Under the pieces are notes generated by a model. That model was not told where the DNA came from and did not search any database. It saw only the letters and a program-made list of their open reading frames with translations. From Candidatus Obscuribacteraceae bacterium (GTDB lineage: Bacteria > Cyanobacteriota > Vampirovibrionia > Obscuribacterales > Obscuribacteraceae), in the NCBI GenBank assembly GCA_044226015.1, contig JBGAHS010000001.1, positions 64,001 to 128,000 of the forward strand: a stretch of DNA of 64,000 nt. Reading direction: 5' to 3'. Both the position numbers and the translations under genes were made by a program. Positions 17,161-37,801 of the stretch are shown piece by piece (position 1 is the stretch's first letter; every line of letters begins with the position of its first letter).

Positions 17161-17202
17161 GATGTTCCCAGTGCGATTTGATTGGATTTCAGAGACTTTT
17201 AA
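17149..17202 (-). repeat. Cassette junction repeat (13-bp core + ~40-bp leader), copy at cassette 1
   Basis: Minus strand reads TTAAAAGTCTCTGAAATCCAATCAAATCGCACTGGGAACAT-CACCCAATTTTCG. Confidence 0.9.
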
Positions 17203-17357: not shown

Positions 17358-18056
17358 TTAAGTGCTGGGATTGGCGCGGAGCTGACAAATCAAAATTTTT
17401 TCCACAATTTCGTTCTTTATAGATATTCCGGACTCGTTTTCAACTAAAGATAAATCCAGAGATTGGTAAATCCGCAGTGCCTGCGCCCAGCGTTGTAGCT
17501 CCATAAGACTATCTGCTAAATTGATCTGATTTTCTAAATCAATTTCATCGGCGTTCGCTGAACGTAATTCAACTGCTTTTACAAAGCAGTCTAAAGCTTG
17601 TTCCAGATAAGCGGTCCTCATCGATGGATCACAGGGGTAATCCTTAAGGATCCTACCTTTTTGCGCCAGAAATCCATCATTTAGTGGAAACATCGAAATG
17701 GCCTTATCGGCAATTAAAAGTGCATCTTTGGCGACTTGGAGTTTCTCTGCAATTGATAATGGGTTCTTTTTTGTCATCCATTTGTGTATGGCCAAACTGA
17801 TCCATGTTAGAAACGTTCCCTCATCCTTCTCTGCAAGCTCGTAGATCGCGCAAACTGTCTTCCATCCAGCCGGAAAGTCCACTCGATGAGCAAGTACTAT
17901 TAGTCTTTCGTCCTCTGTAAATCCAGAATTTGCCGTGGACCTCAGGAAATGCCGGAGCTTGTCTTTGCTTATGAATTGGTCTACTTTTGTGTTGTCGAGC
18001 ACCGTCTGAAATTGCCGACCAGCATCTGTATTCCACTTATTAATGTACTCTGCCAT
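17358..18056 (-). CDS. Putative immunity protein of cassette 2 (helical/TPR-like)
   Basis: Start overlaps the cassette 2 stop; LEQALDCFVKAVEL and LADSLMELQRWAQALRIYQ TPR-like helices. Confidence 0.7.
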   Translation of the reverse strand: MAEYINKWNTDAGRQFQTVLDNTKVDQFISKDKLRHFLRSTANSGFTEDERLIVLAHRVDFPAGWKTVCAIYELAEKDEGTFLTWISLAIHKWMTKKNPLSIAEKLQVAKDALLIADKAISMFPLNDGFLAQKGRILKDYPCDPSMRTAYLEQALDCFVKAVELRSANADEIDLENQINLADSLMELQRWAQALRIYQSLDLSLVENESGISIKNEIVEKILICQLRANPST

Positions 18057-18903
18057 TAGACACCTCCATAAACCGGGTTGCCTGGCCAGGGCAGTAAAAT
18101 GGTATCAAATAAATCCACCATGGCAATTGTGGTGGAACAGCCTTGGGCAACGGTAGCGGCAGCCTGGTTTCGTCGTGGGATTTTTCAATTGGCTGCTTTT
18201 TCGGTATCGTTCGGTAATCTGGTGGTCTTTTGCCACAGTACTCCCAGCTTCCAGAAAATGTTTCGCCTTTTCCAACAGAATCATTGCATGCCGCGTCATT
18301 TTTGTAACAGCATCCTGGATCCCGACCAGCTTTCAAGCATTTTTGAGTCTGCTGCTCACAACAATCTTTGCTTGAGCAACAAGCTAATCCGTATGGGTCC
18401 ATGAATATTGTTGGAGCATTATTTGCGTATTCGAACAAATTCGTTCCGATATTTTCCCCAAGCGGATCTCTGCTTAACCACCGGGCGAATGAGGGTGCAT
18501 AGTTTCTGAAAAGCGTTTGGTTCATGCCTGAGTTCTGGTGGAAGTACATACCAGCGTAGCCGAAGTCTGAAAACGTTCCGCTCGTGCTTAAGTAAACAAG
18601 CCGTCCGTAAGGCTCATATGAAACTATAAGATCAATGAGTAAAGAGGCACCAGTAGTGTGCGTCATTTCTCTCACTGACCCCAGGTGATCAAATGTGAAG
18701 AAATGGGTTGTTGATGCACTCGCGGCAAATATCACCTCTCCTTTGCCAAAAAACTGCTTGCCATTACTCAAACTACCAGTGCCATCTCTTTCCTCGCACC
18801 TAGCGGACCCGCACCACAAATGTTGCTTTGTGGAAGTGACACTGCCAGCAGTGCGCTCCTCGATTTTAGTTGCGCGCGAAAGTGCATCATGCGAAAATTG
18901 GGT
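18040..18903 (-). CDS. Silent Rhs C-terminal cassette 2 (Cys-rich tip)
   Basis: TQFSHDALSRATKIEERTAG..., WLSRDPLG and PTIFMDPYGL; tip CCSSKDCC...CC; core at 18892-18904 with a degenerate leader. Confidence 0.88.
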   Translation of the reverse strand, partial: TQFSHDALSRATKIEERTAGSVTSTKQHLWCGSARCEERDGTGSLSNGKQFFGKGEVIFAASASTTHFFTFDHLGSVREMTHTTGASLLIDLIVSYEPYGRLVYLSTSGTFSDFGYAGMYFHQNSGMNQTLFRNYAPSFARWLSRDPLGENIGTNLFEYANNAPTIFMDPYGLACCSSKDCCEQQTQKCLKAGRDPGCCYKNDAACNDSVGKGETFSGSWEYCGKRPPDYRTIPKKQPIEKSHDETRLPLPLPKAVPPQLPWWIYLIPFYCPGQATRFMEVSNGRVH

Positions 18904-19158
18904 GATGTTTATGGTGGGAGAAGTCTTGATTTCGGTGAAGTCGAATGATGCAGCCAAAGTCTCTGGGTGAGAAGTCCGTCGTGCTTTTAATTCTTCCAGT
19001 GGAAGAGGTTCGAGGTTTCCGCATCCTCATGGTAATAAAAGTCAGCTGAATTCAAGGCTAAGCATTGCTCAAATTTTTGAAATGTGCATAACAGCGACCG
19101 CATCAACTATAATTTAAGTCATAGTTAGTTATGACTTACAAAAGTCCATTTTTTAGCC

Positions 19159-19829: not shown

Positions 19830-19890
19830 GAAGGTTCCCAGCGGATTCAGCTCTGTGGTGACTCTACCCATTTCATCGAAGGACCAACGT
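19830..19890 (-). repeat. 61-bp fragment of the Rhs gene body (copy of 33606..33666), inverted
   Basis: Reverse complement matches 33606..33666 with 2 mismatches (RWSFDEMGRVTxELNPLGTF). Confidence 0.9.
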
Positions 19891-20448: not shown

Positions 20449-21297
20449 TCACTGACTAAGATTGACCGTTGCTCCGGGGAACTTCGTTAGACATTTATTA
20501 ATATCTTCTGCAAAATCAGTATCACAATCCTCCAGTTCCTGAGCTAGCACCGGATTGTTACTGGCTTCCGGCTCGTTGGCATGGCAGCCTAATTTGTCGC
20601 TCCGGCAATCATTCCATTTGTTCAGCGCTTTAAGAACACACATGTTCATTTTCATCTGAATAAAATTCATTTTGATATTTTTTATGGCGTTAGTGATTGC
20701 GTGCGCTGAAATCATCATAACGGCTGTGCTAGCCACGACGGCAGCGCCGACTGGGGTAAGGGCGATAGTCGCTGCCTGAGCATATCGACCGGACGGATCT
20801 ATATCCAAAGTTGGAGAGTTTTCTACATATCCGTAAAGATTCAACCCTCCTTTTTCTCCAATCGGATCTCTGTTGATGAATCTACCAAGAGCAGCATTAT
20901 AAGCCCTGTAGACCGGCATGCTGAGTCCACTTCTTCCATGCAGATAGTATCCTGCATATTGCATGTCAGCAGAGCTGGTGCCCGTCACAATGGTCTCAGC
21001 GACCACACCATAAGGATCATATGAATATCGGGTTTTAATGGCACCAGTGGAATCGGTCAGCTCTCTTATAGAGCCCAGGTGATCTTTGTTATAGAAATAA
21101 TTTGCGGGCGTGCCACCACTAAAGTTCACCTGGCCTCTGCTGAAGAATTGCTTACCATTGCTGAGACTGCCTGATGCATCTAGTTCCTCGCATCGCTCAC
21201 TCCCGCACCACAAATGTTGCTTCGTCGACGTAACACTACCTGCGGTGCGCTCTTCGATTTTCGTGGCACGCGAAAGTGCATCATACGAAAATTGGGT
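20449..21297 (-). CDS. Silent Rhs C-terminal cassette 3 (hydrophobic helix + Cys-spaced helical tip)
   Basis: Same in-frame TQFSYDALSR junction; KDHLGSIRE, FINRDPIG and DIDPSGR motifs. Confidence 0.88.
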   Translation of the reverse strand, partial: TQFSYDALSRATKIEERTAGSVTSTKQHLWCGSERCEELDASGSLSNGKQFFSRGQVNFSGGTPANYFYNKDHLGSIRELTDSTGAIKTRYSYDPYGVVAETIVTGTSSADMQYAGYYLHGRSGLSMPVYRAYNAALGRFINRDPIGEKGGLNLYGYVENSPTLDIDPSGRYAQAATIALTPVGAAVVASTAVMMISAHAITNAIKNIKMNFIQMKMNMCVLKALNKWNDCRSDKLGCHANEPEASNNPVLAQELEDCDTDFAEDINKCLTKFPGATVNLSQ

Positions 21298-21340
21298 GAT
21301 GTTTCCGGTGGGATTTGATTGGATTTCAGAGGTCTTTAAA
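21286..21340 (-). repeat. Cassette junction repeat (core + leader), copy at cassette 3
   Basis: TTTAAAGACCTCTGAAATCCAATCAAATCCCACCGGAAACAT-CACCCAATTTTCG. Confidence 0.9.
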
Positions 21341-22180: not shown

Positions 22181-23140
22181 TCATCCACCCTTGGACTTTT
22201 GTAAGCAGCCTTTATCGCACCGAGTCTTTTTAGCTTTTAAGCATTTTTCGCATTTTTGAATTGCTCCTAAATATCCGGGATCTCCACCACCAAATTTACT
22301 AATACCCTCCTCCAGCCCGAATTTACTGACGTAATACCCGGCAAGCATGGAACCCGCTCTCAAATTTTTTGCAGGATCTGACATTTCGCTCCACTTCGCA
22401 CCAACTTGGCTTGCAGATTGCTCGTTATATATTTGCAAAAGACCCTTTGCACCAGAGCCTTCTGTGTTGTCTACACTCGGCTCAAAATTATCGGGTGAGT
22501 GTGGAGTGCTTTCACGAAAAGCCATACATAACAAAAATTCCGTACCCAGTTGAGTCCCAACTGTGCCAGCTACGGTCTTGCCTGAATAGTTACAACCTCC
22601 GTCCAGCAACCTAGCAACTTGAACGCAAGTGAGAAGCCCTAGTGGGTCCAGGTAACGAATTGGATTTCCGCCAACATAGCTGTAAATATTTAAATCACCG
22701 GCTTCACCAATTGGATCTCTACTGAGCCATCTGCCTAATGAAGCTGAGTATTGACGAAACCAAGTCATGTTCAATCCACTTCGCATATGTGAGTAGTAAC
22801 CAGCATATTGAAAATCAGCGTCCTGTGAGCCTGAGATCTTGTTGACGACACCATATGGATCATAACCATACAGTGAAACAATGGTCCCTGAGCTATTAGT
22901 TAATTCCCTCACAGATCCAAGCTTATCTATGCAATAAAAATAATTAGATCCTGTGGCAGAATTAAAATTGATTTGTCCCATGCCGCAGAACTGCTTTCCA
23001 TTGCTCAAGCTTCCGGACAGATCTCGTTCTTCAGACTTCTCTGAATCGCACCATAAATGTTGCTTCGTCGAGGTAACACTGCTTGCGGTGCGCTCCTCAA
23101 TCTTCGTTGCGCGCGACAGTGCATCATACGAAAATTGGGT
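22181..23140 (-). CDS. Silent Rhs C-terminal cassette 4 with lytic transglycosylase (SLT/lysozyme-like) tip
   Basis: PIRYLDPLGL junction; tip motifs MAFRES (catalytic Glu), GAKGLLQI and DPAKNLRAGS. Confidence 0.85.
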   Translation of the reverse strand, partial: TQFSYDALSRATKIEERTASSVTSTKQHLWCDSEKSEERDLSGSLSNGKQFCGMGQINFNSATGSNYFYCIDKLGSVRELTNSSGTIVSLYGYDPYGVVNKISGSQDADFQYAGYYSHMRSGLNMTWFRQYSASLGRWLSRDPIGEAGDLNIYSYVGGNPIRYLDPLGLLTCVQVARLLDGGCNYSGKTVAGTVGTQLGTEFLLCMAFRESTPHSPDNFEPSVDNTEGSGAKGLLQIYNEQSASQVGAKWSEMSDPAKNLRAGSMLAGYYVSKFGLEEGISKFGGGDPGYLGAIQKCEKCLKAKKTRCDKGCLQKSKGG

Positions 23141-23182
23141 GATGTTTCCAGTGGGATTTGATTGGTTTTCAGAGGCTTTTAA
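23129..23182 (-). repeat. Cassette junction repeat (core + leader), copy at cassette 4
   Basis: TTAAAAGCCTCTGAAAACCAATCAAATCCCACTGGAAACAT-CACCCAATTTTCG. Confidence 0.9.
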
Positions 23183-23943: not shown

Positions 23944-24588
23944 TTAAGGTGCATTGTCGACAATTGATTTGTCGGTTTCTATAATTGCCTCAATCGCGGA
24001 GGCGACTCTTTTCAATGTTTCATTACGGGATTTTTTCGCAAGAGACAGGTAACTAGGCAGCATTGTTGAGCGACAGGCTAGCAGCATATTTAGTGCGGTT
24101 ACCTTGTCTAGTGGTTTCTTTGATGTCCACCACAATTGAGCATATGATTCAGATTGGCTCCAGCCTGTCCCGGCTAGCAGTTGCGCCGCGTTGTCTCGAA
24201 TCACTTCACTGAAATCACTCAAAAGAAAATGCATTGCTAGCCGTTCTCTCAATGCAGAGTCTCTCAACCTTCGGCACCGCAGAAGAAAATACAATCTAAT
24301 TGATTCCTCTGGATACGGAAGAATTGCCAACTTTGATATCTCGTCATCAGAAATTGATTTAACAAGCAGTTGTGATTGCCAATCCAGAGTTATTACGTGT
24401 TTTATTGCAAGATGTTCTTTCTTGGTCCAAGCCAATGGTGCAGAATCACAAAGCAACTCACAGAAGTCCTTGACCAGTTCGGCTAGGTTTGAATAGTTAC
24501 TCAAAGAACAATTCTCTTCCTCGATCAATTTAAGGTGCTTCTTCAAGTTCGAAATTTTTTCTTTAAGGATCATTACATTCTTCATCAT
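23944..24588 (-). CDS. Putative immunity protein of cassette 5 (helical/HEAT-like)
   Basis: Start overlaps the cassette 5 stop; EVIRDNAAQLLA and TLKRVASAIEAI helical repeats. Confidence 0.7.
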   Translation of the reverse strand: MMKNVMILKEKISNLKKHLKLIEEENCSLSNYSNLAELVKDFCELLCDSAPLAWTKKEHLAIKHVITLDWQSQLLVKSISDDEISKLAILPYPEESIRLYFLLRCRRLRDSALRERLAMHFLLSDFSEVIRDNAAQLLAGTGWSQSESYAQLWWTSKKPLDKVTALNMLLACRSTMLPSYLSLAKKSRNETLKRVASAIEAIIETDKSIVDNAP

Positions 24589-25474
24589 CTACAGCTGGGG
24601 TGTCGCCTGTAAAGCCACCATTGCATCTTCTTACGCAATAGCTCAAATATTGCACAGCCCAGAGAACACAACACTTGTATTTTCTTGGGTCTGGGTCGCA
24701 TCCGCCCGGTCCGTACATTTTATCGCAATAACCAGCACCAAGTTCTTTTGTATTATGCAGAGCATCAAATTTTTGATGACAACAGCGAAGACATCTCACC
24801 TTAGTACCATCTTGACACTCGAGAAATGGAAATTCATTTGGACGACCAATCGCAAAGTCTTCAGGCCAGGGAGTGAATTGTCTCTTTCGTGGCTTTGCCG
24901 CGTTCATTGTTAGTGGAATGCTAACAGGCGCCCCTGATGCACAAGCGCCTCCAGCGCATCCCATAAGACCTGTGTGGTCTACCCAGCGGATTGGATCATT
25001 GGAAACGTATGAATATAAATTTGGACCAGCGTTTTCACTTAGCGGATCTCTGCTAAGCCATCGACCATTAATTGAGGAATATACTCGATAATACGTCAGA
25101 TTTAAGCCAGATCTGACGTGTAGATAGTAATCTGCATACTGAAAGTCCGCGGAAAGAGTGCCTTGGACTTTGGTGACATCTCCATAAGGTCCATATGCGT
25201 ATTGCGCGACTATAGCGCCAGAGCTATCTGTCATTTCCCTTATACTTGAGGGAGGCGCATCCTTTGTAAATTGGTAGTTTGTACTTGAACCAGCATTAAA
25301 GTCTCGCTGTCCTCTTGCGAAGAATTGTTTACCGCTACCAAAGCCGCCGGTTAGGTCACGCTCCTCGCAACGTTCAGACCCGCACCACAAATGCTGCTTC
25401 GTAGAAGTGACACTGCCAGCGGTGCGCTCCTCGATTTTCGCTGCACGCGAAAGTGCGTCATACGAAAATTGGGT
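24563..25474 (-). CDS. Rhs C-terminal cassette 5 (very Cys-rich tip), immediately downstream of the recombinase
   Basis: NTQFSYDALSRAAKIEERTAG, WLSRDPL and PIRWVDHTGL; core at 25463-25475; only a TTG six codons upstream. Confidence 0.88.
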   Translation of the reverse strand, partial: TQFSYDALSRAAKIEERTAGSVTSTKQHLWCGSERCEERDLTGGFGSGKQFFARGQRDFNAGSSTNYQFTKDAPPSSIREMTDSSGAIVAQYAYGPYGDVTKVQGTLSADFQYADYYLHVRSGLNLTYYRVYSSINGRWLSRDPLSENAGPNLYSYVSNDPIRWVDHTGLMGCAGGACASGAPVSIPLTMNAAKPRKRQFTPWPEDFAIGRPNEFPFLECQDGTKVRCLRCCHQKFDALHNTKELGAGYCDKMYGPGGCDPDPRKYKCCVLWAVQYLSYCVRRCNGGFTGDTPAVDDEECNDP

Positions 25475-25521
25475 GTTTTTGTATGTGTCCAAATGCCGGA
25501 ACTGCCCTGCAGGAATGGATT

Positions 25522-26640
25522 CTAAGAAGTGCTGCTGGAATTCTTGCGAATTTTGTTTGGTGCTTCTTCGTGCCCCATAAGTTTGAGGAAATTGTTCGTA
25601 ATTTTCTCCATCGGCTGCCGTAATCTCTCCACGTCAATGACCAAATATCCAAATGTGGTGTCATTCTTTACGGAATGATTAGCTAGTTTTTTCAATGCAT
25701 AATGAGGAATTCCAAGGCTCTCAGCCTTCGTCAAAAACGTGCGGCGCAGGTCGTGAATTGTAAAGTGACAGTTTGAATGCTCTCGAAGTTTTTGAAGCGT
25801 CGCATCAAAGTGCGTGATGCCAGCACGTCTCCCTGGAAACACAAAATCTGATTTGCTAGAAGCAAACCGTCTCTTTAAGAGCCTTGTCAGAAAACTGCTG
25901 AGAGGGAGTACATGCGCTCTATGGTTTTTAGTTCTCTCTCCATCAATGGCGACAGTTTTTGCTTCGAAATCGATGTCCGACCATCTCAAGGAGGCGGCCT
26001 CAGCTCTCCTGAAACCAGTGAGCAATACGAAGAGAAGATAGTCGCGGACTGTTTCGCTTCGCACAGTCTTCAGAGCCGAATACCACCGAGTCAATTTAGA
26101 GTCTGGAATCATGCCCTGCCTTACAGTCGCCCGATACCAGCGCTTATTTTGTGTAAGCACGTCAACTGGGTTGTTTCTCAATAGCGGGCGCCCGTTTTTC
26201 TCATGATAACGACGAAGAGCGAAATTGAAGAGCATTCTCATAATGCGCATCACCATGTTGGCCTGAAGCTTGCTTGCTTCTGTTGAGTGCGTACCGATAT
26301 CTGAGTGCTTCTTCTCAATCATTGCCGAGCTAATTGAAGACAATGGTAGGTCTATCCAATCACTCAGATGGTGCGCAACAAGAGCGTTGTAGATGCGAAC
26401 AGAAGACTGACGCAATTCTGGCTTCGACTCTAAATAATCTCTGAGAACAGTTCTAAGCGTTTTTCCTCTAGATTTCTTTTTAGAGACCTGGCGCTTTGCG
26501 AAGCTGGTTTGCTTAATGCGATTCTCAATCCTTGAGACTAGACCCGGGCCGCTTTTGATTCTAACCATCACAATAATTCTTAGTTCAGTCATGTGCTTCT
26601 CCACAAATTTTTTTCCAGTTTGGAGATTGGCACTACACAT
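25522..26640 (-). CDS. Tyrosine recombinase/integrase (core-binding + catalytic domains, no obvious arm-binding domain)
   Basis: LLTGFRRAEA (R), RTKNHRAH (K), HDLRRT (HxxR), LANH and TFGY (Y); true start uncertain (possibly MTELR or MVRIK). Confidence 0.92.
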   Translation of the reverse strand: MCSANLQTGKKFVEKHMTELRIIVMVRIKSGPGLVSRIENRIKQTSFAKRQVSKKKSRGKTLRTVLRDYLESKPELRQSSVRIYNALVAHHLSDWIDLPLSSISSAMIEKKHSDIGTHSTEASKLQANMVMRIMRMLFNFALRRYHEKNGRPLLRNNPVDVLTQNKRWYRATVRQGMIPDSKLTRWYSALKTVRSETVRDYLLFVLLTGFRRAEAASLRWSDIDFEAKTVAIDGERTKNHRAHVLPLSSFLTRLLKRRFASSKSDFVFPGRRAGITHFDATLQKLREHSNCHFTIHDLRRTFLTKAESLGIPHYALKKLANHSVKNDTTFGYLVIDVERLRQPMEKITNNFLKLMGHEEAPNKIRKNSSSTS

Positions 26641-26932: not shown

Positions 26933-27790
26933 ATGTCAAAATTTGCGACAATGGCCCTTTCGTTGAGCATTTGTATTTTTGGAAATTTGATTCCAGCAAA
27001 TGCCCAATGTGTTGGCGGAAGTCCTTCATCAGCGGTCACGTCTATAGATGAAACTGGGAATTTTCCATCAAGTCGTATGTTGGTGGACGGGCTAGGAACG
27101 ACCGTGGACACTGGCACCGCAGGAAAGATAAAAGTAAATGTTAGCGCCCTGATTGCTGCACCGCAGCGGGTGGGTTGGTGGACGCCTCTCACGACTGCGG
27201 CAACGACGTTCAGCGCAGTGGGCATGACTGCCGTACCTACTGCATCTGGCACTGCAGCCAATGCTAGTGGCACATCAGGCAACTTGATAAAATACAGTAC
27301 AGCGACAACGGTGAATGCAGTTGGCGGAATTCGGTCAACTGCATTCACTGACGCGCGATATCAGTACTCGCCAACATTTGCTACGAGAGTACGTACCAGC
27401 GCCTCTGGAATAGCGAGCCAACGAATATGGATAGGACTGGCGGCAAGCAACCCCAGCGGAAGTGCTACGCCAACAGCTAATCTCGCCTCATTTCGATATG
27501 ACACCGGTGCTGGCGATACGACGTGGAAATGTGTGAGTTCAAATGCTTCCACAAACACGGTGGTTGACAGTGGAGTTACAGTTGCTACAAGTACTACTTA
27601 CGACATGTTTGTAGACAGCTCCGATCCTTCAAAACTCGTGTACACAATTAACGGTGCTATTGTTGCAACGATCACTACTAATTTGCCAGTGGACAATACA
27701 AACATCGGACCGAATATTTCAATCACAAATCTCCTGGCGGGAACTGCTCGAGATTTGAGCGTCGGCACAACTAGAATCCAGCAATATTAG
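26933..27790 (+). CDS. Secreted Thr/Ser/Ala-rich beta-strand protein, first gene of the Rhs operon
   Basis: AAGGAG RBS; signal peptide ending PANA; beta-rich composition. Confidence 0.75.
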   Translation: MSKFATMALSLSICIFGNLIPANAQCVGGSPSSAVTSIDETGNFPSSRMLVDGLGTTVDTGTAGKIKVNVSALIAAPQRVGWWTPLTTAATTFSAVGMTAVPTASGTAANASGTSGNLIKYSTATTVNAVGGIRSTAFTDARYQYSPTFATRVRTSASGIASQRIWIGLAASNPSGSATPTANLASFRYDTGAGDTTWKCVSSNASTNTVVDSGVTVATSTTYDMFVDSSDPSKLVYTINGAIVATITTNLPVDNTNIGPNISITNLLAGTARDLSVGTTRIQQY

Positions 27791-27800
27791 TGAGGTAACT

Positions 27801-29123
27801 TTGAAAACTGTGAAAAAGTGGTCAAATCATTGTTTTGCGCTTGCTGTTGTATTTCTTGCAGCGCAGCCAGTATTAAGCGCAACGGCTCCAACGCCCTTTA
27901 TTGGAACTGCTGGAGAAATGCTCTCTCCGAAAACGGTCACTATGGGAGTTAAGGCTTCCATTGGGAACTCTATCCACTTTACAACCGACGGAAGTACGCC
28001 TAACGGAGCTAGCACAACCTATCTCAATCCATTCACAGTAACAACTTCTACAACGTTAAAAGCCATTTCCATCGACGGCTCGCCCAATCCCGTAGCTACA
28101 TTGTACATCGATCTGCCGTCAGTGTATCTGGATGCCGAAGAAGGCATTGTTCCAGCTACTGGAAATCCCAACCCAGTGATTGTTTGGACTGACCAATCAG
28201 GAAATTCTAATAGTGCAAGTGCCATTAGCGGACAAGATCCAAAGTTACTTCCAAATTCAATCAATGACTTAGCCGCAATTGAATTCTCGGGACAATATTT
28301 CAACCTTCCTGCTGGTTTTGCTGATTTCACAAAAGGCGTAAGCATATTCATAGTCGCTAAGACTGCCTCCTTGACCGCTGGAGCTACTTTGCTCGATATC
28401 GGCAATGGCAGCAGCGGAAATAACATAAAAGTGCGGATTTCGAATACGGGTTCTAAAGCTGAGTTCGATGTCTATAGTGGTACCACCAGCAGTGCCGCGC
28501 AATCAGCCAGTGCTCTCAGTACCAGTGAGTACACTCTAATTGAAGCTGTGCTTGTTCCGAATGTCTCGGGAACTGATGCGACCGGAACTATCTATGTAAA
28601 TGGGCAGGCTGGAACGCCAGTCACAAACATGTTTTTAGCAGCAAATACAAGTAGGTCTATTAATACAATAGGTGCTGCTGCTGCTGGGTCCAGTCCGTAC
28701 AGCGGAAAGATCGCAGAGCTGCTTATTTTTCCAAACGCTATAAATAATCGACAAGATGTCGAGGCAGTTCTGCTGCAAAAATTTGATTTATTGCGTCAAC
28801 AGCCTCCCACACCACAGATCAGCGTTGCGGGAGGAAATAAGAACGGTCCAACGCAAGTCGTTATAAGTTCGGCAGATGACACATCCGTCCTTCACGTGAC
28901 CACCGACGGAACGACGCCGAACGCCTCCTCTCCCATTTTCAATGGCTGCCCTATTCTCATTAACTACACCACGACGCTGAAAGCTATCGCAGTAAAGAAT
29001 GGAATTTCCAGCAGCGTTGCTTCCGAAACCTATACCCTCAACGCCGACCAATGCCCGACTCCGAGCCCATCGGATATGGTTGCGCCCACAATAAATTTAA
29101 CCGTGCCTGTTCAAAGTCAATAA
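27801..29123 (+). CDS. Secreted protein: two Fn3-associated/chitobiase-C-like domains flanking a LamG/ConA-like domain
   Basis: HFTTDGSTP...TTLKAI and HVTTDGTTP...TTLKAIA; WTDQSGNSN and YSGKIAELLIF motifs; signal peptide. Confidence 0.8.
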   Translation: MKTVKKWSNHCFALAVVFLAAQPVLSATAPTPFIGTAGEMLSPKTVTMGVKASIGNSIHFTTDGSTPNGASTTYLNPFTVTTSTTLKAISIDGSPNPVATLYIDLPSVYLDAEEGIVPATGNPNPVIVWTDQSGNSNSASAISGQDPKLLPNSINDLAAIEFSGQYFNLPAGFADFTKGVSIFIVAKTASLTAGATLLDIGNGSSGNNIKVRISNTGSKAEFDVYSGTTSSAAQSASALSTSEYTLIEAVLVPNVSGTDATGTIYVNGQAGTPVTNMFLAANTSRSINTIGAAAAGSSPYSGKIAELLIFPNAINNRQDVEAVLLQKFDLLRQQPPTPQISVAGGNKNGPTQVVISSADDTSVLHVTTDGTTPNASSPIFNGCPILINYTTTLKAIAVKNGISSSVASETYTLNADQCPTPSPSDMVAPTINLTVPVQSQ

Positions 29124-29139: not shown

Positions 29140-32100
29140 ATGAAATTTATCAGAATGAATAACCGCTCGCGTTCGGCACTATTGATGGTGCTCCTATTGC
29201 TTAGCATGGTGCCTTCGCAAATGGTTTTATCTGCGCCTGCTGAACGCATTTCAATAAAAAAGCAGCATGAGGCTAGCAACACTGCTAACCCACGCCCAAA
29301 AATTGAAATTGGCGACTCATCGCTTTCATTTCCTGCGTCCCCCACGGACAGTGATCTCATAAATTGCCACGTATTTTTGGAGCCATTAGCACCGTCTGAT
29401 CAAGATGTTAATCAAAAGGAAAACAAAGAGCTTGCGACCGCAATCCTGAAGTATCTAAAAAGGCAGAAATCAGAAGATGTATCTGCACTTACTTCATTCT
29501 TGCAGTCTAATCCTAAGTCACGATGGACGGCTTCTCTCGCGTTGAATGTTGCGCAAAAATTGTTTGATGCGGGTTATCTAAATGAAGCAGCCGATTACTG
29601 GGAAAAATCATGGAATCTGTCTAAAGATAAGAAAGATCCGGCGATGAAAATGGTTGCAAACTCAGCCGTATCGCATTTGGTGCAACTGGAAGCTCGCCTC
29701 GGGTTAGCGGAAAAGCTCGAAGAACATTTGAGATTAGCTTCTTCACGTGTAATGGCGGCGTCAGATATGTTGCGGCTAAAAGCTGCACAAGATGGACTCT
29801 GGACCATGAACCAAAATGAAGGCATTGCCTTCAAATGTGGTCCATATGGGCTAAAGTCCCTTGCACTTTCAAAAAGCCCTGGGCTGCAAACCACTCGCTC
29901 ACCTGAAGAAGTTGATCAAATAATCAAAACCGCAGATTCCACGAAGCGTGGAACAAATCTAGAGCAGTTGAAAGATCTTGCTCGTAAATTGGATTTGGAC
30001 CTTTCACCTGTTAAGCGTAAGTCCGGATCTCAGATTCCAGTTCCTAGCCTCGTGCATTGGTCCAAAGGACACTTTGCTGCCATTCTCGAAGAGTCCAATG
30101 GTTTTTACAAAATCGAAGATCCTACTTTCGATTCTGACGGAACAAAATGGGTGAGCGCAGCTGCTCTTAATGCTGAGAGCGATGGCTATTTCATGATTCC
30201 TTCTGACAAAGTGGGCGCAAACTGGATTACGCTCGACGATAGCGAAGCAAGAAATGTTTGGGGAAAAGGTTATGCCGCGCTTCCTCAACAATTCAAAACT
30301 CCTTATTGCCCAAAAACACCTTGCGCTGGTGGTAATTGCAAGCCCAAGGGAGGATCTGGAGGAGGACCTGATTCGTGTGGTATGCCTGTAGCGTCAGCGT
30401 TTTCAATGAATGCCACCTTGAACATCGTGGATACGCCATTGACGTATTCGCCACCAGTAGGGCCTGAAATGGGGGTAGTTGTAAATTACAACTACAATGA
30501 GGGACAACAACCATCAACGTTTTCTTTCACCAACCTGGGGCATAACTGGAGCCTGAACTGGCTCTCTTACCTTACCATTGATAGCACAGACCCAATCCAC
30601 CGGATAGTTAACGTACGCGTCCGTGGTGGAGGTTATGAGACATACAAGGAGGCATTCAACCACGATGCTTATTCACTGGCGATCATTGCAGAAGTCAACA
30701 ACGCTGGCGTGATTAGTTGGGAGCGACGGATGCCGGACGGAAGTGTCGAGAAATACGAAAGAAAAAATGCAGCAGGCGACACATTCTTTCTAACGCAAGT
30801 ACTCGACCCGCAAGGTAAAGCTGCAGTTTTAGCCTATTCTTCAAACACTGTGACTGACCCAGGCTATTTCCGCCTGGCTTCGATAACAGACGCTTGCGGC
30901 AACTCTCCAATGACTGTTGCGTATGACTCAAACATCTCAACAGACCCTGGCTATTACAAGGTAACCGGGGTGACAGATGGCTTTGGTCGCTCAGCGAGTT
31001 TTGCTTATAGCGCAGATAAGAGCCAGTTGTTGAGCATGACGGATGCAGTTGGTAACCAATCTAGCTTTCGCTATCAGACGGATACGGACTCGACTTTCAT
31101 CAATCTCATGGTGTCACCGTACGGCAGTACGCAATTCTATCGCTACACTCCTGGAGGTGATACCGACACTGTTCCAGAAGGACTAAAATTCACATTGCCA
31201 GACGGAACAAGCACTCGCATCGAAAATTGGTTGAGTTCTATCAAACAAACTTACTTCTGGGATAGAGAAGCCTCTGAAATGTATCCCAACGATGCGTTCA
31301 ACAATGTGTACACACATTGTCAGACCACAAGATGGCTTTTTATTTCGAATTCTATAGAGTCTTCAATCCCTAGCTGGACTAGGAAGCCATTGGAAGCCCC
31401 CGTGAACTATTACAGCGTTGGACAAAGTGGGCAGAATGCAACTTCGGCTGGCGGTCTTACGCGATATCAGCAGATTGCCCAGCAGCTGGTGCCAATAAAA
31501 AATAGTATCACTGTTGGTGGCACCGTTACCGCGGGTAATCTAATCAAGGTTCAAATTCGTGATTTAGGACTTATTGATTCAGGAGACATTGTTCTCTCGT
31601 ACCAGGTCGTCTCTGGCGATACTATTTCTACTATCGCCGCCGGGCTTGCACAGAGTTTCAACAATGATCGGTATTGCCAGGGATATGGCATAACAGCGGC
31701 TGCAGTGGGGAACGTGATAACAGTAACTTCTCTTACTGCCAATGATTTTGACAGTAGCAAATTTGCAAATTTATCGGGTTCAATAACAGAGACCTTAACT
31801 TTTGCGTCTGGAACCAACCGGGTTCAGAACTTCAGTTTCAGCGGCACTCCTACTGCAGGACAGGTGTATGCAATTACTGTTACGGATTCCAGCCTGCCTG
31901 GTGGCTCTCAAACAGTGAGTTATACAGTTCAGGCTGGCGATAGCAATTCAGATATCGCGCAAGCACTTTCACTTGCAGTAAACGCAAATACGAACCTGCA
32001 AACATCTAAGATTTCTTCTGCTTGGACTAGTGCTCCCTATAGCGGGGTGATCGGTCAAATCCCCGCCATTAGCGCGGCTCCCATGCTGGGTTGTCAGTCA

Positions 32101-35100
32101 TCTTCGACAAGCACCACAACCTATGCAAGCACGGTAAATGGCTCATCCAGTGTCAATTTCACTAATGTTACCAGTGCCCACGGATTGGTGAAATCTAACT
32201 ACAAGACTTTCCCTGGCACAATATGGGGGAATCCGATTCAGGTCATCGATGAGCTAGGCAGGCGTCTGGAGTTTTCCTACGCTAGCAACCAGATCGACGT
32301 GTTGAAAGTTGTGAACTTAAGCACTTCGCCAATCATGGGGTTGGCTTACTATACCTATGGAAGCACCCCGCATAAGCCAACAATGATCATTGATGGAACA
32401 TTGCAGCACACTCTGTACAGCTACAACAGCTTGGGTCAATTAACAACGCTTACAGATCCTACGGGTGCTGTTACAACTTACAATTACGACGCCAATGGAT
32501 ACCTCACTTCTATAGATGGACCGCTCAGTGGAAACCAGGATGTTACCAGCTTTTCCTTCTATGGATATGGAGTTCCAAGTTCCATCACGGACTCAGAAGG
32601 TTACGTGTTGAATTTTTCATATGACGGACTAAATAGACTAACGACAACGTCCTTTCCGGACGGAACATCGGAGGAAACGAAGTACAACAGGCTTGACGCA
32701 GTCATGATGTCCGATCGCATCGGTCGCTGGACCCAGCGAACCTATGACAATATGCAAAACCTCGTTTCGGAAACCGATCCATTAGGAAGACAAACTAAGT
32801 ATTGCTGGTGTCATTGCGGTGGGCTAGCTTCATTGACTGACCCTGCAGGCAATACCACAAAGTGGCATCACGATCTTGAAGGACGAGTGATTCAGAAGGA
32901 GTATGCTGATGGGTCTCATTACGATTACGTTTACGAGACGACGAACAGCCGAATAGCCTCTATTTCTGATGCAATTCAACCTACACCGCAAACAACATTG
33001 TTTGCCTACAATTTCGATGATTCGGTTGCGGTGAAACGGTACGCCAATGCGGTGAATGCGACATCGCAGGTGGTATCAGCTTTTGATCCGTACTTTGATC
33101 GCCCGCAGTCAATCTCAAACGGATGGGGTCAATACAACTATAAGTATTACCCTAATTATCAGGATTTCGGTGCCGACACAGGTTGGACTTCAATTGTAGT
33201 GGGCGGAATCCCAGAAGTCCCGAACGCAACCGATACGATAAGCATCGTTTTCTATAGCTCAAATTTGCCAGGAGGACAATATACATTTAATTACACAGTC
33301 CCTACGGGAGACGTGGGAAATCCGGCTCAGTTAGCAACTCACCTCGGCGCTGCTATAGGTGCAAATGCAACTCTGCAGGCCGCAAATATTTTTACGGCGA
33401 CAAGCGGTGTTCTAATTAAAATCCACAATCAAACAACAGCACTTCGAGTAGCACCGACTGCTACGGGGGGCACCATCGTGACCTGCGGTGCCGGCAAGCT
33501 CAGCGATGTGACCAATAGCGTGATTTCCAATTCACAGATTTCTTACGGCTACGATAATGATGGAAGAACGAACGTCAGACTCATCAACGGCGGAAATAAC
33601 AATTCACGTTGGTCCTTCGATGAAATGGGAAGAGTCACCTCAGAGCTGAATCCGCTGGGAACCTTCAACTATGCCTACATCGATAACACGTCTGGATCAT
33701 CGAAGGGCGTCAATCGTCTTGCTTCGATAACCTATCCCAATAGCCAGGTCACGAACTTTAGCTGGCTGCCGAACATCGGCGACCAGCGCCTGCAACAAAT
33801 TTCGAATCTCAGCCCCACGGCAACTACATTGTCTAAATTTGCCTACGCATACAATTCTGCGGGTGAAATCACGCAATGGCAGCAGCTTCAGAATAGCGTC
33901 AACACCCATCTTGGACTGGCTTACGATAACGCTGGACAGCTGATTACAGCAGTTTCCGATTCGGGCACGCAATTCAAAGCTTACGTTGCGGGCACTCCGC
34001 ATACTGGTGATGTTGTCTCAGTGACTGCATATGACGCCTCGCTAACCGGCACGACTCCTGTGGGTCAGGAGACTGCGTCCTACACAGTTGTGGGCGGAGA
34101 TACATCGGCGACAATCGCTACAAATCTTGCTAGCGCAATCACGTCAGTTATGGGGACGAACCTGGGACTCAGTGCTTCTGCCTCGGGCAAAGTCATTTCT
34201 ATCACGACATCAGCCACGCGAGCAACGCAATTTACTTCCGCTGTCACCGGCGCCGGTGCAACTGACACCATAATCATGGACCGCGGACAACCTAGCGGAA
34301 ATCGGCACAGTCAGCTTTACTACGGCTACGATTGCGCGGGTAATCGCACGGGAGTTCAGGGCGACAGCACTGGAAGTTTCGGCACTGGTGGCTTGAGCAC
34401 AAACGCCACGGCATACGGCTACAACAATCTCAATGAGCTCACAAATTATGCCCCTGGTGGTCCAATCAGATTTGAAGGAACCACGACCAATCCGATTATT
34501 TCAGCAGTGGCAAATGTCACAAAAACTGTCACGGTCACCGGCTCGGTGACTACCGGGGACAAATTAACGGTTAGCGTCCATGATCCTGCAATTACTGCCG
34601 GGAAGGATATCACCTACACGGTCGCTGGTGGCAACACAACCACCGACATCGCAACAGGCTTGAAAAACCTGGTCAACGCCGATGGCACGTTGTCTTCTCT
34701 GGGCATCACTGCAACTTCGAGTTCTAATGTGCTGACGATTACATCGACATCAGCCAACAAGACAATGTATTCGGCGAGCAAAAACACTGGAGCTACCGAA
34801 ACACTAACTCTCAACACTTCTGCTTCGGATACGGGGCTGATAAGTCCATCGAATGCATTTAGTTCGAATCCGAAGCTAGCATTGAGTTCGAACACCGTGA
34901 AGGTGACAGCCAAGAGTGGCGGCGGAACGGCCGCAACCAATTCGTATCCAATAAGCATCAATTCGGGCTCTTCCGCGACACTGCAATATGACGCGAACGG
35001 CAATATGACGAGCGACGGCACGAACACCTATGCCTGGGATGCCGAAAACAGGCTGATTCAGATTACCTATCCGGGTTCTGGAAATAACACCCAATTTTCG

Positions 35101-36069
35101 TATGATGCACTTTCGCGCGCCACGAAAATTGAGGAACGCACCGCTGGCAGTGTCACGTCTACGAAGCAACATCTGTGGTGCGGATCGTCCCGATGCGAGG
35201 AAAGAGATGCAGCCGGTAGCATGAGCAATGGGAAGCAGTTCTTCGGAATTGGGCAGGCAAACTTTGCCAGTGGCACGCCGGCGAAATATTTCTACACGCG
35301 AAGCCATGATTTTTCAGTTAGAGAAATGACCGACAATTCAGCTGCTATTGTTGCCCAGTATGGGTATGAACCATATGGAAAACGAACTAAACTTCAAGGA
35401 GCGTCCGAGGCTGATGTGCAATATGCAGCTATGTACATGCATCCAAGAAGTGGGTTAAGCTTCACGCATTTTAGGCAATACGATGCTGATCGGGCTATAT
35501 GGTTAAGTCGAGATCCGATTTCGAGCGGATATGGTTATGCAGCTAATAGTCCAGTCAATTTTATAGATCCAATCGGATTGAAAGAAATCAATTTAACAGT
35601 GGAGTTGGAGGCTAATTGCCTTGGATATGCAACTTATCCTATGACTGGAGACTTACTTCACAACCCACGGGCTGAGGAATCATTGTCGGATACGCTAGGA
35701 AGACTAGGATATAGTTGTTTTCCAATCTCCTCAGCAAAAGATTGCAAGTGCGACTGTCCGTCTGGTGGGGCAGGAGGTGCTGGAGGTGCGGGTAATCACA
35801 CACCTAAGCTGGTAGTCGGAGTTTATACTTATGAAAGCAATCCTCCAAACGCTGACCCTTGGTCCGATCCCTGGATTAAGGGACCTGGTAATGATTTTCA
35901 TGCTGTCAGGGAAGATGCCCCTGGAAATTGGAGTTATGTTCCAAGGAGCATGAACGTTCATAAGACCAATGGTAACGTAGCTGAAGCTATACAAGTATCT
36001 TCTCCCGAAAAAGGATTTCCCGGACGCAAACTCCCAAAAAACCGCACATTTTGCTGTTGTGGAAAGTAA
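29140..36069 (+). CDS. Full-length Rhs/YD-repeat polymorphic protein (signal peptide, C39-like peptidase domain, YD repeats with inserted domains, Rhs core, variable tip)
   Basis: N-terminal signal peptide; KCGPYGL...VHWSKGHF...IEDP; YD repeats (YNSLGQLTTLTDPTG, YDANGNMTSDG, YAWDAENRL); WLSRDP...PVNFIDPIGL. Confidence 0.95.
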   Translation: MKFIRMNNRSRSALLMVLLLLSMVPSQMVLSAPAERISIKKQHEASNTANPRPKIEIGDSSLSFPASPTDSDLINCHVFLEPLAPSDQDVNQKENKELATAILKYLKRQKSEDVSALTSFLQSNPKSRWTASLALNVAQKLFDAGYLNEAADYWEKSWNLSKDKKDPAMKMVANSAVSHLVQLEARLGLAEKLEEHLRLASSRVMAASDMLRLKAAQDGLWTMNQNEGIAFKCGPYGLKSLALSKSPGLQTTRSPEEVDQIIKTADSTKRGTNLEQLKDLARKLDLDLSPVKRKSGSQIPVPSLVHWSKGHFAAILEESNGFYKIEDPTFDSDGTKWVSAAALNAESDGYFMIPSDKVGANWITLDDSEARNVWGKGYAALPQQFKTPYCPKTPCAGGNCKPKGGSGGGPDSCGMPVASAFSMNATLNIVDTPLTYSPPVGPEMGVVVNYNYNEGQQPSTFSFTNLGHNWSLNWLSYLTIDSTDPIHRIVNVRVRGGGYETYKEAFNHDAYSLAIIAEVNNAGVISWERRMPDGSVEKYERKNAAGDTFFLTQVLDPQGKAAVLAYSSNTVTDPGYFRLASITDACGNSPMTVAYDSNISTDPGYYKVTGVTDGFGRSASFAYSADKSQLLSMTDAVGNQSSFRYQTDTDSTFINLMVSPYGSTQFYRYTPGGDTDTVPEGLKFTLPDGTSTRIENWLSSIKQTYFWDREASEMYPNDAFNNVYTHCQTTRWLFISNSIESSIPSWTRKPLEAPVNYYSVGQSGQNATSAGGLTRYQQIAQQLVPIKNSITVGGTVTAGNLIKVQIRDLGLIDSGDIVLSYQVVSGDTISTIAAGLAQSFNNDRYCQGYGITAAAVGNVITVTSLTANDFDSSKFANLSGSITETLTFASGTNRVQNFSFSGTPTAGQVYAITVTDSSLPGGSQTVSYTVQAGDSNSDIAQALSLAVNANTNLQTSKISSAWTSAPYSGVIGQIPAISAAPMLGCQSSSTSTTTYASTVNGSSSVNFTNVTSAHGLVKSNYKTFPGTIWGNPIQVIDELGRRLEFSYASNQIDVLKVVNLSTSPIMGLAYYTYGSTPHKPTMIIDGTLQHTLYSYNSLGQLTTLTDPTGAVTTYNYDANGYLTSIDGPLSGNQDVTSFSFYGYGVPSSITDSEGYVLNFSYDGLNRLTTTSFPDGTSEETKYNRLDAVMMSDRIGRWTQRTYDNMQNLVSETDPLGRQTKYCWCHCGGLASLTDPAGNTTKWHHDLEGRVIQKEYADGSHYDYVYETTNSRIASISDAIQPTPQTTLFAYNFDDSVAVKRYANAVNATSQVVSAFDPYFDRPQSISNGWGQYNYKYYPNYQDFGADTGWTSIVVGGIPEVPNATDTISIVFYSSNLPGGQYTFNYTVPTGDVGNPAQLATHLGAAIGANATLQAANIFTATSGVLIKIHNQTTALRVAPTATGGTIVTCGAGKLSDVTNSVISNSQISYGYDNDGRTNVRLINGGNNNSRWSFDEMGRVTSELNPLGTFNYAYIDNTSGSSKGVNRLASITYPNSQVTNFSWLPNIGDQRLQQISNLSPTATTLSKFAYAYNSAGEITQWQQLQNSVNTHLGLAYDNAGQLITAVSDSGTQFKAYVAGTPHTGDVVSVTAYDASLTGTTPVGQETASYTVVGGDTSATIATNLASAITSVMGTNLGLSASASGKVISITTSATRATQFTSAVTGAGATDTIIMDRGQPSGNRHSQLYYGYDCAGNRTGVQGDSTGSFGTGGLSTNATAYGYNNLNELTNYAPGGPIRFEGTTTNPIISAVANVTKTVTVTGSVTTGDKLTVSVHDPAITAGKDITYTVAGGNTTTDIATGLKNLVNADGTLSSLGITATSSSNVLTITSTSANKTMYSASKNTGATETLTLNTSASDTGLISPSNAFSSNPKLALSSNTVKVTAKSGGGTAATNSYPISINSGSSATLQYDANGNMTSDGTNTYAWDAENRLIQITYPGSGNNTQFSYDALSRATKIEERTAGSVTSTKQHLWCGSSRCEERDAAGSMSNGKQFFGIGQANFASGTPAKYFYTRSHDFSVREMTDNSAAIVAQYGYEPYGKRTKLQGASEADVQYAAMYMHPRSGLSFTHFRQYDADRAIWLSRDPISSGYGYAANSPVNFIDPIGLKEINLTVELEANCLGYATYPMTGDLLHNPRAEESLSDTLGRLGYSCFPISSAKDCKCDCPSGGAGGAGGAGNHTPKLVVGVYTYESNPPNADPWSDPWIKGPGNDFHAVREDAPGNWSYVPRSMNVHKTNGNVAEAIQVSSPEKGFPGRKLPKNRTFCCCGK
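35088..35100 (+). repeat. Junction core inside the full-length Rhs gene (codon ~1984)
   Basis: CACCCAATTTTCG, identical in all six cassettes. Confidence 0.92.
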
Positions 36070-36689
36070 TGATGACCATTAAGCGATATATATCTATCTC
36101 AATGAGCCTTTTGATTCTCATCGGACCTAAAGCTTTTTCAGCACCCATAGAAAAAGGAAGAATGCAGTTAGAAGTATTCAGTCTCGGAAGGCTTAAACAT
36201 CAAAAGCAGAATCAAGCCTGTTTAGGCTTGCGCTTTTTTTGTAATGCCGACAACCCCATTGAAGTTGTGCTGCAATCCTTTTGTGGTAAAGGAGTCGAGT
36301 CAGAGATGCTATTTAATCACAAGAAAGATCCAGGCTCACTCAGAAACGTACTTTTCGCCAACTTCCACTATCAATGGGTAAACCAAAAGGGAAAAACTGT
36401 ATTGGAAGAAACTGCTTATGCTAACCAATCCGAAGTGAAATTGAAAAAAGAACAATGTGGATTTGCCGATGTGTCAGAATCTGCCATGGTTTATCTTCCT
36501 ATCGTGTTACCAACTCCTCCTGGTAAGTACAACTTGAAGGTGCAATTCGACAACACGGCATTGGAAGACGCAAGCCAGTCACGGAACAACATGGGAGTTG
36601 ATGGACCTGACGGAAAGCCGCTGCTTATATCAAAGCCGACGCAGGTATTCGAGGCAATCATGACCGAGCAGGAAATTGTAATCAATTGA
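36069..36689 (+). CDS. Putative exported immunity protein for the currently attached Rhs tip
   Basis: TAATG stop/start overlap with Rhs; signal peptide MMTIKRYISISMSLLILIGPKAFS. Confidence 0.75.
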   Translation: MMTIKRYISISMSLLILIGPKAFSAPIEKGRMQLEVFSLGRLKHQKQNQACLGLRFFCNADNPIEVVLQSFCGKGVESEMLFNHKKDPGSLRNVLFANFHYQWVNQKGKTVLEETAYANQSEVKLKKEQCGFADVSESAMVYLPIVLPTPPGKYNLKVQFDNTALEDASQSRNNMGVDGPDGKPLLISKPTQVFEAIMTEQEIVIN

Positions 36690-36876: not shown

Positions 36877-36937
36877 TTAAAAACCTCTGAAATCCAATCA
36901 AATTGCAAATTGCACTGGAAACATCACCCAATTTTCG
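36877..36937 (+). repeat. Cassette junction repeat (leader + core), copy at cassette 6
   Basis: TTAAAAACCTCTGAAATCCAATC(AAATTGC)x2-ACTGGAAACAT-CACCCAATTTTCG. Confidence 0.9.
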
Positions 36938-37801
36938 TATGATGCACTTTCGCGCGCCACGAGAATCGAGGAGCGCACCAGCGGTAGCCTTACGTCTACA
37001 AAGCAGCACCTGTGGTGTGGTTCACAGAGGTGCGAGGAAAGGGATGCATCAGGCAGCCTGAGTAACGGGAAGCAGTTCTTCACTCTGGGCCAGAGGATCT
37101 TCACCAGTGGTAGTGGCACTAACTACTTCTATATAAAGGACTCACCTCCCGGCAGCATAAGGGAGATGACCGATGCCTCAGGTGCCATAGCAGCCCAGTA
37201 TGGTTATGGACCATGGGGGGAAGTCACCAAGATTCAGGGAGTCGGGGACTCTGACTTTCAGTATGCCGGTTATTACATTCATTCCAGAAGTGGACTCGGA
37301 CTCACCCGTTATAGAGCCTACAATGCCAATCTCGGTGTTTGGCTTAGCAGAGATCCTAGCGATGATGAGGAAGATGAGCCCAATAGATACAGGTATGTTG
37401 CGAATAATCCGATAAAGTTTAACGATCCTCTTGGTCTGTTCCCCGGTATTCCGGGTCCACCGCCAATACCTAATCCTTCATCCGGAGGCGGGCACATAAT
37501 AGGACCAGCAGGTAGCCCGCCACCTAACGACGAACCAAATGATAATGAGGTATACAATCATCCGGCCTATCTGAATTGCCTGGCTGGTGTACACAACCTA
37601 TTCGATTCCATCCAAGCGCAATACGAAAAAGAGGAAGCTGACGACTTCAAGAAAGCTGGTAAGAATAAGAAGAAGCTAAAGTGCGCACGAGACAAGTGGC
37701 GCAAGAAATGGCAGGACTTCAATGATGATCAAGCGTCGAGATCGGCCGATTGCTTCACAAAGGCGAAGATGATTATGCGACGGGAGAGGGGGTCACGATA
37801 A
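36926..37801 (+). CDS. Silent Rhs C-terminal cassette 6 (Pro-rich linker + helical tip)
   Basis: In-frame TQFSYDALSRATRIEERTSG... 80 codons upstream of the ORF-track ATG at 37166; WLSRDP and PIKFNDPLGL. Confidence 0.88.
   Translation, partial: TQFSYDALSRATRIEERTSGSLTSTKQHLWCGSQRCEERDASGSLSNGKQFFTLGQRIFTSGSGTNYFYIKDSPPGSIREMTDASGAIAAQYGYGPWGEVTKIQGVGDSDFQYAGYYIHSRSGLGLTRYRAYNANLGVWLSRDPSDDEEDEPNRYRYVANNPIKFNDPLGLFPGIPGPPPIPNPSSGGGHIIGPAGSPPPNDEPNDNEVYNHPAYLNCLAGVHNLFDSIQAQYEKEEADDFKKAGKNKKKLKCARDKWRKKWQDFNDDQASRSADCFTKAKMIMRRERGSR

Follow-up and report, generated by a model that had tools for sequence, protein, structure and literature searches.

A 13-bp core within an Rhs gene as a probable attachment site of the neighbouring tyrosine integrase

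The window analysed here is a stretch of 64,000 nucleotides from a Candidatus Obscuribacteraceae bacterium (assembly GCA_044226015.1, contig JBGAHS010000001.1, positions 64,001 to 128,000). It contains a full-length Rhs gene, six orphan Rhs tips and a tyrosine integrase. The same 13-bp core lies within the full-length gene and at the start of each orphan. Judging from the sequence comparisons, we consider it likely that this core belongs to the attachment (att) site of the integrase, which would target the Rhs gene and swap toxin-immunity tips onto it. The core likely comprises the strand-exchange region (spacer) and one binding arm of that site. This reading is founded on the invariance of the core, the uniform start of the cassettes, natural junctions that fall within 18 nt, intact catalytic residues in the integrase and the linkage of its clade to Rhs genes.

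The core and the position of the crossover

A preliminary description of the window had placed identical copies of the core at seven sites, five on the minus strand and two on the plus strand; all seven are exact (Table 1). A scan of the window finds nine matches, these seven and two with one or two mismatches, a number reached by none of 100 shuffled sequences (mean 2.13). The whole genome holds 25 exact cores: one, on contig C12, is unrelated, and 24 stand in an Rhs context on contig C11, seven of them in the window and 17 at 1.239-1.288 Mb, in a second Rhs locus. A degenerate core pattern has six matches in unrelated genomes.

Within the Rhs gene of 2,309 residues the core is translated in frame as T-Q-F-S. 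Across the 24 copies, offsets 0-12 form the sole invariant run of at least 5 nt, and 17 positions among offsets 0-17 are invariant. Identity had been claimed to extend to the wobble positions of the codons ACC CAA TTT TCG, and these four positions are indeed invariant in all 24 copies; the following 20 nt differ, again as described, by 0-2 changes per copy. Synonymous divergence by codon is non-uniform: it is zero as far as codon 4, lies at 0.1-0.6 over codons 5-30 and climbs to as much as 0.8 further on. Third positions past the first 33 nt do vary, but not freely at once as had been stated: values of 0.7-0.8 are attained only from codon 31.

The core has four monomorphic codons out of four, versus four of the 25 codons 4-28 among the seven window copies and one of 25 among the 24 copies (Fisher p 0.003 and 0.0002, respectively, for a core picked post hoc in related copies). 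A stronger control comes from the genome itself: all nine Rhs copies from other lineages, without a break at this point, encode the same peptide in other codons (ACG CAG, ACA CAG or ACT CAA). Protein constraint therefore fails to explain the core, in agreement with the earlier proposal that the constraint acts on DNA. In a further Rhs lineage, on contigs C3 and C13, all six short orphans share this starting point and carry the initial 10 nt of the core there.

On C11, 21 of the 22 orphans start at the core; the orphan at 1261350 carries 173 nt of upstream Rhs homology. Typical cassettes are about 90% alike over their first 90 nt, and conservation peaks at the core edge, which borders non-homologous DNA. 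The tips are unrelated between cassettes although the core is identical. Reading frames stay open from the core for 282-352 codons in 22 of the 24 copies and are broken in two. Left flanks are coding at three sites (full-length type, one of them itself orphaned) and non-coding at 21.

The crossover was mapped on ten pairs of sites, chosen for common flanks or common cassettes. At sites 1271675 and 1279869 the left flanks agree over 433 nt without a single change, whereas on the right divergence sets in at +18, and 51 of the following 100 nt differ. In two other flank-sharing pairs, 1261350/1277744 and 1253608/1285207, it sets in at +20 and +21. Three cassettes that are 30-51% divergent just downstream thus retain the exact core. 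Sites 1247619, 1266376 and 1285207, which lie to either side of the gene, agree at 92-96% over some 730 nt to the right, but each has a left flank of its own. The left arms of full-length and orphan type differ at -1 and -3 in every case. Taken together, the natural junctions bracket the crossover between offsets 0 and +17, which suits the candidate crossover first proposed at the 5' edge of the cassettes. Three other pairs show ordinary similarity only.

A putative site of 27 bp spans the core, with two 10-bp arms and a 7-bp spacer (Table 1). Its arms match at four of ten positions in the full-length gene. On the integrase side they form a 9/10 inverted repeat, a score found at 61 of 599,880 positions of the genome, and the match between the divergent cassettes is lost at +16, the end of the right arm. 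We treat this dyad as a lead, because it was noticed post hoc and the other 23 sites score 3-5/10; a general dyad across all sites is rejected on the same scores. The orphan-type left arms carry a GA(A/G)ATC box at -29 to -24 in 13 of 21 cases and AACAT at -5 to -1 in 19 of 21. An attC-like hairpin is rejected as well (z -0.5 to -2.1 on eight strands from four sites); the full-length site can fold into a hairpin of 9-12 bp.

The integrase and its relatives

The stop codon of the integrase lies 47 nt from the nearest core. The catalytic set R211, K238, H296, R299, H322 and Y332 is intact, in columns that are 95-98% conserved, and the enzyme was also aligned to 4a8e. It is thus a tyrosine recombinase, and it is not an arm-bearing integrase of the lambda type: the Arm domain PF13356 is absent from it and from the enzyme of a related genome (G006), and present in all three other relatives scanned. 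Since the five nearest database homologues (47-59%) also have no Arm domain, the Arm-less form is a subfamily. Several homologues come from Candidatus Obscuribacterales. With the IntI model TIGR02249 the enzyme scores 20.6 bits against a cut-off of 265, which places it outside that family. The idea of a freshly truncated relic is weakened, as the window contains no Arm fragment and the five nearest homologues are Arm-less too. Within 700 nt upstream of the 24 cores, the search for integrase remnants finds one sequence, the intact gene itself. A metagenome scan with the integrase gave one relative at 41% and otherwise distant matches.

The frame of the gene stays open for about 75 codons upstream of the ATG (window 26641-26880), behind one TGA; this extension has no homologue in the genome or the fetched loci. 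A single contig of run X4 (depth 3.1) joins window position 26458 to 27698, leaving out the beginning of the integrase and the larger part of the first accessory gene; its junction coincides with the onset of homology among integrases.

Among 104 genomes of the family, 65 contain the integrase (E <= 1e-45) and 62 an Rhs core (E <= 1e-25). DNA was fetched around the best-ranked 72 of 146 non-self integrase hits. An Rhs core stands no more than 5 kb from 43 of these 72, among them 21 of the 22 ranked highest, and the 43 are spread over 21 of 41 genomes; on a generous estimate, chance would account for about 3%. Three of the 43 (in G101) adjoin a more distant YD protein, and several of the misses are on short contigs. 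A quick tree was built from 84 rows, among them loci picked for Rhs adjacency. One of its clades (61 rows, SH-aLRT 99) takes in the window enzyme and every one of the 49 Rhs-adjacent rows; the other 23 rows include no Rhs-adjacent one.

The usual layout in relatives is an Rhs gene with its tip, an open reading frame (ORF) of immunity size, the integrase and, 80-1,200 nt past the integrase stop, an orphan tip (21 of 81 integrases). Such an order would be expected if a circle with tip, immunity gene and integrase entered an Rhs gene. G019 stacks three full integrases among seven tips. Stacked units of about 3.5-4 kb, each with a tip, a neighbour ORF and an Arm-bearing integrase, stand 3' of Rhs genes in G019 (C40, L017-L018), G097 (C1, C3 and C13, L139-L143) and G110 (C7, L145-L146). 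They are apparently minimal integrative elements that target Rhs genes. An integrase element bounded by two copies of the target core, with the gene restored, occurs in relatives, for example at L139, L142, L143 and L017-L018; in the window this layout is kept at the integrase-to-orphan junction only.

Break points in relatives were compared over 41 long copies, 29 short and 3 shorter ones, with 4 skipped. AGAT at -28 is the start of 27 of the 29 short orphans, and at this point identity to full-length genes rises abruptly from 0.24 to 1.00; 11 of 29 have a GCAC...TGC hairpin just left of the break. The orphan arm in our genome retains a box in register with the -28 site, which would fit a crossover that moved downstream, the 28 nt in between being left to drift. 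No pair of empty and occupied genomes was found among 79 fetched loci, and none of the viral contigs encodes a relative of a cassette.

Competing explanations, mechanism and known systems

Several observations weigh against an att site served by this integrase. The flank-sharing pair 82904/1239462 is alike to about +72 and is uninformative for the crossover, and the three similar cassettes 1247619, 1266376 and 1285207 part again inside the tip; from these two facts, other recombination also acts here. The strong dyad is confined to one of 24 sites, with 2-8/10 in relatives. The crossover of the window differs from that of the family, whose members vary freely over the 13-bp region; among 32 short orphans from relatives, three begin close to the window's point, one of which adjoins the Arm-less enzyme of G006 in the same register. 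On the tree the window enzyme forms a long branch, and its position as sister could be spurious; the five nearest Arm-less homologues are known here from protein sequence alone. In the second locus no homologous integrase stands beside the Rhs gene, which has itself lost its first 323 codons. One of 22 scanned tips passes a toxin-family cut-off.

No recombined junction at the core was found in the contigs of four public runs, in which rare variants are dropped, and no inversion isomers were seen there either. Two of the runs, X1 and X2, may be the source sample. Because an unbranched contig (depth 12.6) spans the integrase-side site, there is no abundant alternative join at that site in that sample, which also counts against the reading. 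Record 14 of X2, of low depth, leads from the integrase end into an apparent cassette of the second locus. Its five differences all lie past a common stretch of 34 nt (offsets 35-68). To us it looks like a chimera of the assembly graph or a homologous crossover, and we do not count it as support.

Homologous recombination or gene conversion alone would have the orphans inherit the 5' boundary of a founder (an old attR), with tips moving by RecA-dependent crossovers in some 100-500 nt of common Rhs core, as C-terminal displacement has it, and the integrase as a relic. In Salmonella, experiments have demonstrated rhs fusion of this kind across 522 bp with 95% identity (PMC3967940). In our genome the similarity of the first 90 nt, the pair alike to +72, the chimeric tips, the upstream homology of orphan 1261350 and the longer homology fragments carried by orphans of the C3/C5 lineage all suit it, as does the lack of active switching in the public-run contigs. 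However, it predicts that decay comes first beside the non-homologous arm, where the bases are in fact the most conserved. It also sits badly with the exact core of the three cassettes that diverge from +18 to +21, and with a second Rhs lineage that breaks at the same point. The displacement model, as far as the consulted text of PMC2935791 goes, addresses core fragments of variable length, whereas the orphans of C11 are uniform. We judge this explanation unlikely.

A true site-specific crossover by another enzyme seems improbable to us. The candidates would be a host recombinase of the XerC/D type, another integrase of the genome, which has eight more tblastn matches to the integrase at 24-43% identity, or three ORFs that we take to resemble recombinases, in the second locus, which lacks the adjacent integrase. 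The family's known break point, 28 nt away, also speaks for such an enzyme. Against it stand the closeness of the adjacent integrase to a core, the dyad at its own site, which is the best of all, the link between its clade and Rhs loci, and the Arm-less relative in G006, which adjoins an orphan starting in the same register.

A core with no role in recombination, kept by protein constraint, codon preference, RNA or single-strand DNA structure, or recent duplication, can draw on the close kinship of many copies, the post hoc Fisher test and the possible hairpin at the full-length site, but it is very hard to maintain given that T, Q, F and S codons are used evenly within the Rhs gene, that other copies use other codons at these residues, that the hairpin z-scores are weak on all eight strands and that unrelated tips share an identical core.

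Under the att-site reading, a circle with an orphan-type left arm, the core, a new tip and its immunity gene would recombine with the site in the Rhs gene. The new tip would be fused in frame to this gene, and the old one would be pushed out behind the orphan-type arm, silent yet intact. The system may descend from the small elements of relatives, with tip, immunity gene, Arm-bearing integrase and a crossover 28 nt upstream; one Arm-less enzyme would now serve many integrase-less cassettes in trans at the shifted site. Less certainly, two opposed cores could recombine with each other, which would turn the central segment round and join a left-hand tip to the gene in the manner of a shufflon, the arrays staying outward. 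Such inversions could shuffle tips because both arrays point outward, with left and right cores opposed. The same cassette starts on both sides of the second locus fit inversion; a single old rearrangement could also explain the inverted array. That minimal Rhs-targeting elements have been domesticated as a toxin-switching machine, with an Arm-less integrase, a crossover shifted by 28 nt, integron-like capture and shufflon-like inversion, is a possibility we put forward tentatively. If true, a clone would change its toxin without losing any immunity gene.

The prophage e14 and phage 21 enter the icd gene at an in-frame att core, the element restores the frame, and the old end is orphaned. All three traits would recur here. 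In contrast to icd, the replacement end is a different toxin domain with an immunity gene, so integration would change function; elements stack into arrays, and most cassettes have no integrase. The pilV shufflon of R64, acted on by the Arm-less tyrosine recombinase Rci, has a constant N-terminal part and alternative C-termini behind short repeated sites. Our locus likewise combines a constant gene part, alternative C-termini behind a short site, opposed sites and an adjacent Arm-less tyrosine recombinase. Unlike in a shufflon, the constant part and the recombinase are central, the tips lie outward, each tip travels with a partner gene, and tips are apparently acquired as cassettes. The main text of PMC9881135, on shufflons, contains neither 'rhs' nor 'toxin'.

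With integrons and the rAID arrays of Bacteroidales (10.1101/471110) the locus shares one tyrosine recombinase beside recombinase-less cassettes with a repeated motif, and with rAID also a cargo of interbacterial defence. We reject an integron, since the enzyme is not IntI, there is no attC-like hairpin, and the cassettes are gene fragments activated by in-frame fusion. We also reject a rAID array, in which the recombinase precedes co-directional genes and, in the text consulted, is paired with immunity genes only; the cassettes here carry an Rhs core and a tip. Kirchberger 2017 (PMC5361080) notes a likeness to integrons and, in the part consulted, reports no evidence for integrase-driven effector insertion in V. 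cholerae. We regard the core as a real feature that works like an att site within a gene, with integron-like and possibly shufflon-like use, and that by the tests run is neither an integron nor rAID.

For Rhs proteins, homologous recombination is the usual explanation of C-terminal displacement in the texts consulted (Jackson 2009, PMC2935791; Koskiniemi 2014, PMC3967940), a model repeated in PMC13183296. Like those loci, ours has a full-length gene and orphan core-tip arrays with immunity genes, the old tip would be shunted aside and a circular intermediate is proposed. Unlike in them, the orphans start at one base, junctions fall within 18 nt, an integrase adjoins the site and the arrays face both ways. 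The association of integrases with Rhs genes is not itself new: Steele 2017 (PMC5727410) reported integrases near Rhs genes of the bee-gut bacteria Snodgrassella and Gilliamella and proposed that they aid Rhs capture, leaving their role open. That account, in its consulted part, maps no site, junction or element, the likeness to our locus being one of gene position. In the literature searched (main texts, mostly open access; supplements may bear on this), we found no mapped integrase att site in an Rhs gene.

The means by which polymorphic toxins acquire tips and yet retain earlier ones has been an open question since the displacement model; the sources consulted propose homologous or illegitimate recombination and describe an integrase route as lacking evidence. 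The locus supplies a candidate enzyme and an 18-nt window, which reduces the question to a two-plasmid assay and offers a testable mechanism for Rhs toxin diversification. The relatives point to a class of mobile elements of about 4 kb that carry a toxin tip and target a toxin gene. A recombinase that acts in frame on a short site would also be a candidate tool for domain swapping.

Features of the window and of the wider genome

In each window orphan some 170 codons of Rhs core lead into a tip of its own, with a small ORF as neighbour; the minus strand carries five orphans, at 15.6-25.5 kb, and the plus strand a single one, at 36.9 kb (Table 1). The locus has the features of Rhs polymorphic toxins, namely YD repeats (PF05593), TIGR03696 and a variable tip after a DPxG-type motif; motif and tips of 121-204 aa are present in 22 of the 24 core copies. 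One of the 22 scanned tips is Ntox37, and among five neighbour ORFs scanned one is Imm53 and three are DUF4279, with no match for the window's own tips. For the remaining tips the toxin-immunity label rests on position. Of the accessory proteins, that of 285 aa matches no Pfam family and has phage proteins as its Atlas look-alikes; that of 440 aa has LamG and CHB_HEX_C, and its homologues stand upstream of Rhs genes in relatives. A promoter scan stayed at chance level.

Table 1 Coordinates of the features in the window
Feature	Position	Strand	Remarks
Core in full-length Rhs gene	35088..35100	+	In frame; putative expression site (attB/attL-like)
Putative 27-bp site in full-length gene	35078..35104	+	Coding left arm; spacer CACCCAA 35088-35094; invariant right arm 35095-35104
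Integrase-side site	25459..25485	-	10-bp arms, 9/10 inverted repeat; 7-bp spacer; core 25463-25475
Orphan-type left arm (example)	21299..21329	-	About 31 nt, non-coding; unlike the arm of the full-length gene
Tyrosine integrase	25522..26640	-	372 aa from first ATG; PF00589 E 3e-21; database copy 356 aa
Two accessory genes 5' of Rhs	26933..29123	+	285 aa (no Pfam match) and 440 aa (LamG, CHB_HEX_C)
Full-length Rhs/YD gene	29140..36069	+	2,309 aa; peptidase C39, RHS repeats, Rhs-associated core, 163-aa variable tip
Likely immunity gene of attached tip	36051..36689	+	212 aa; by position alone; no family match
Orphan tip cassette c1	24563..25475	-	Open 303 codons from core; then ORFs 23944-24588 and 23192-23515
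Orphan tip cassette c2	22181..23141	-	319 codons; weak SLT match; core 23129-23141; then ORF 21509-22177
Orphan tip cassette c3	20449..21298	-	282 codons; core 21286-21298; neighbour ORF 20058-20435 convergent
Orphan tip cassette c4	18040..18904	-	287 codons; core 18892-18904; then ORF 17358-18056
Orphan tip cassette c5	16252..17161	-	302 codons; core 17149-17161; then ORF 15576-16280
Orphan tip cassette c6	36925..37801	+	291 codons; core 36925-36937; neighbour ORF 37793-38221 convergent

The second locus (C11:1,239,000-1,289,000, L199-L201), 1.14 Mb away, has the same outward-facing plan with its 17 cores, and its central Rhs gene is 79% identical to that of the window. Cores are oriented five minus and two plus in the window, and 13 left and four right in the second locus, all away from the centre. 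The central gene is flanked by a perfect inverted repeat of 451 nt (100%; 1271658-1272108 and 1279436-1279886). The arrays are interrupted by insertion-sequence-like ORFs and by the three consecutive recombinase-like ORFs (1255144-1258420), which presumably resemble a recombinase trio. A segment of about 1 kb in the window (18784-19830, including the ORF 19159-19761) is 96.5% identical to C11:1239342-1240386 and is joined there to a different tip, so the two Rhs loci exchange DNA.

Elsewhere in the genome, Rhs cassettes are cut off by the start and end of C3, the end of C5 and the end of C13, at almost identical residues (2033-2036 of the query). These four breaks could be collapsed repeats or an invertible centre; no full-length gene for the lineages at these contig ends was found in the assembly. 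C5 carries convergent cassettes. A third full-length Rhs gene, of 2,883 aa, lies at C2:19681-30149 and is followed by a recombinase-like ORF of 195 aa; the end of its tip and the neighbour ORF resemble cassette 1239462 by eye. At C4:23998-28097 a related Arm-type integrase (43%) adjoins a different YD-repeat-like ORF.

Among the orphans of the window, 36698-36836 and 19830-19890 are 94-97% copies of the Rhs gene body at 34265-34414 and 33606-33666 (inverted), respectively. Cassette c5 has a 35-nt piece of its own Rhs core (16871-16905) repeated at 94% in its upstream flank (17226-17260). Unrelated tandem repeats occur at 5278-5360 (a 39-nt pair), 12569-12778 (units of 42/84 nt), 42389-42501 (units of 18-19 nt) and 52913-53149 (a low-complexity coding repeat).

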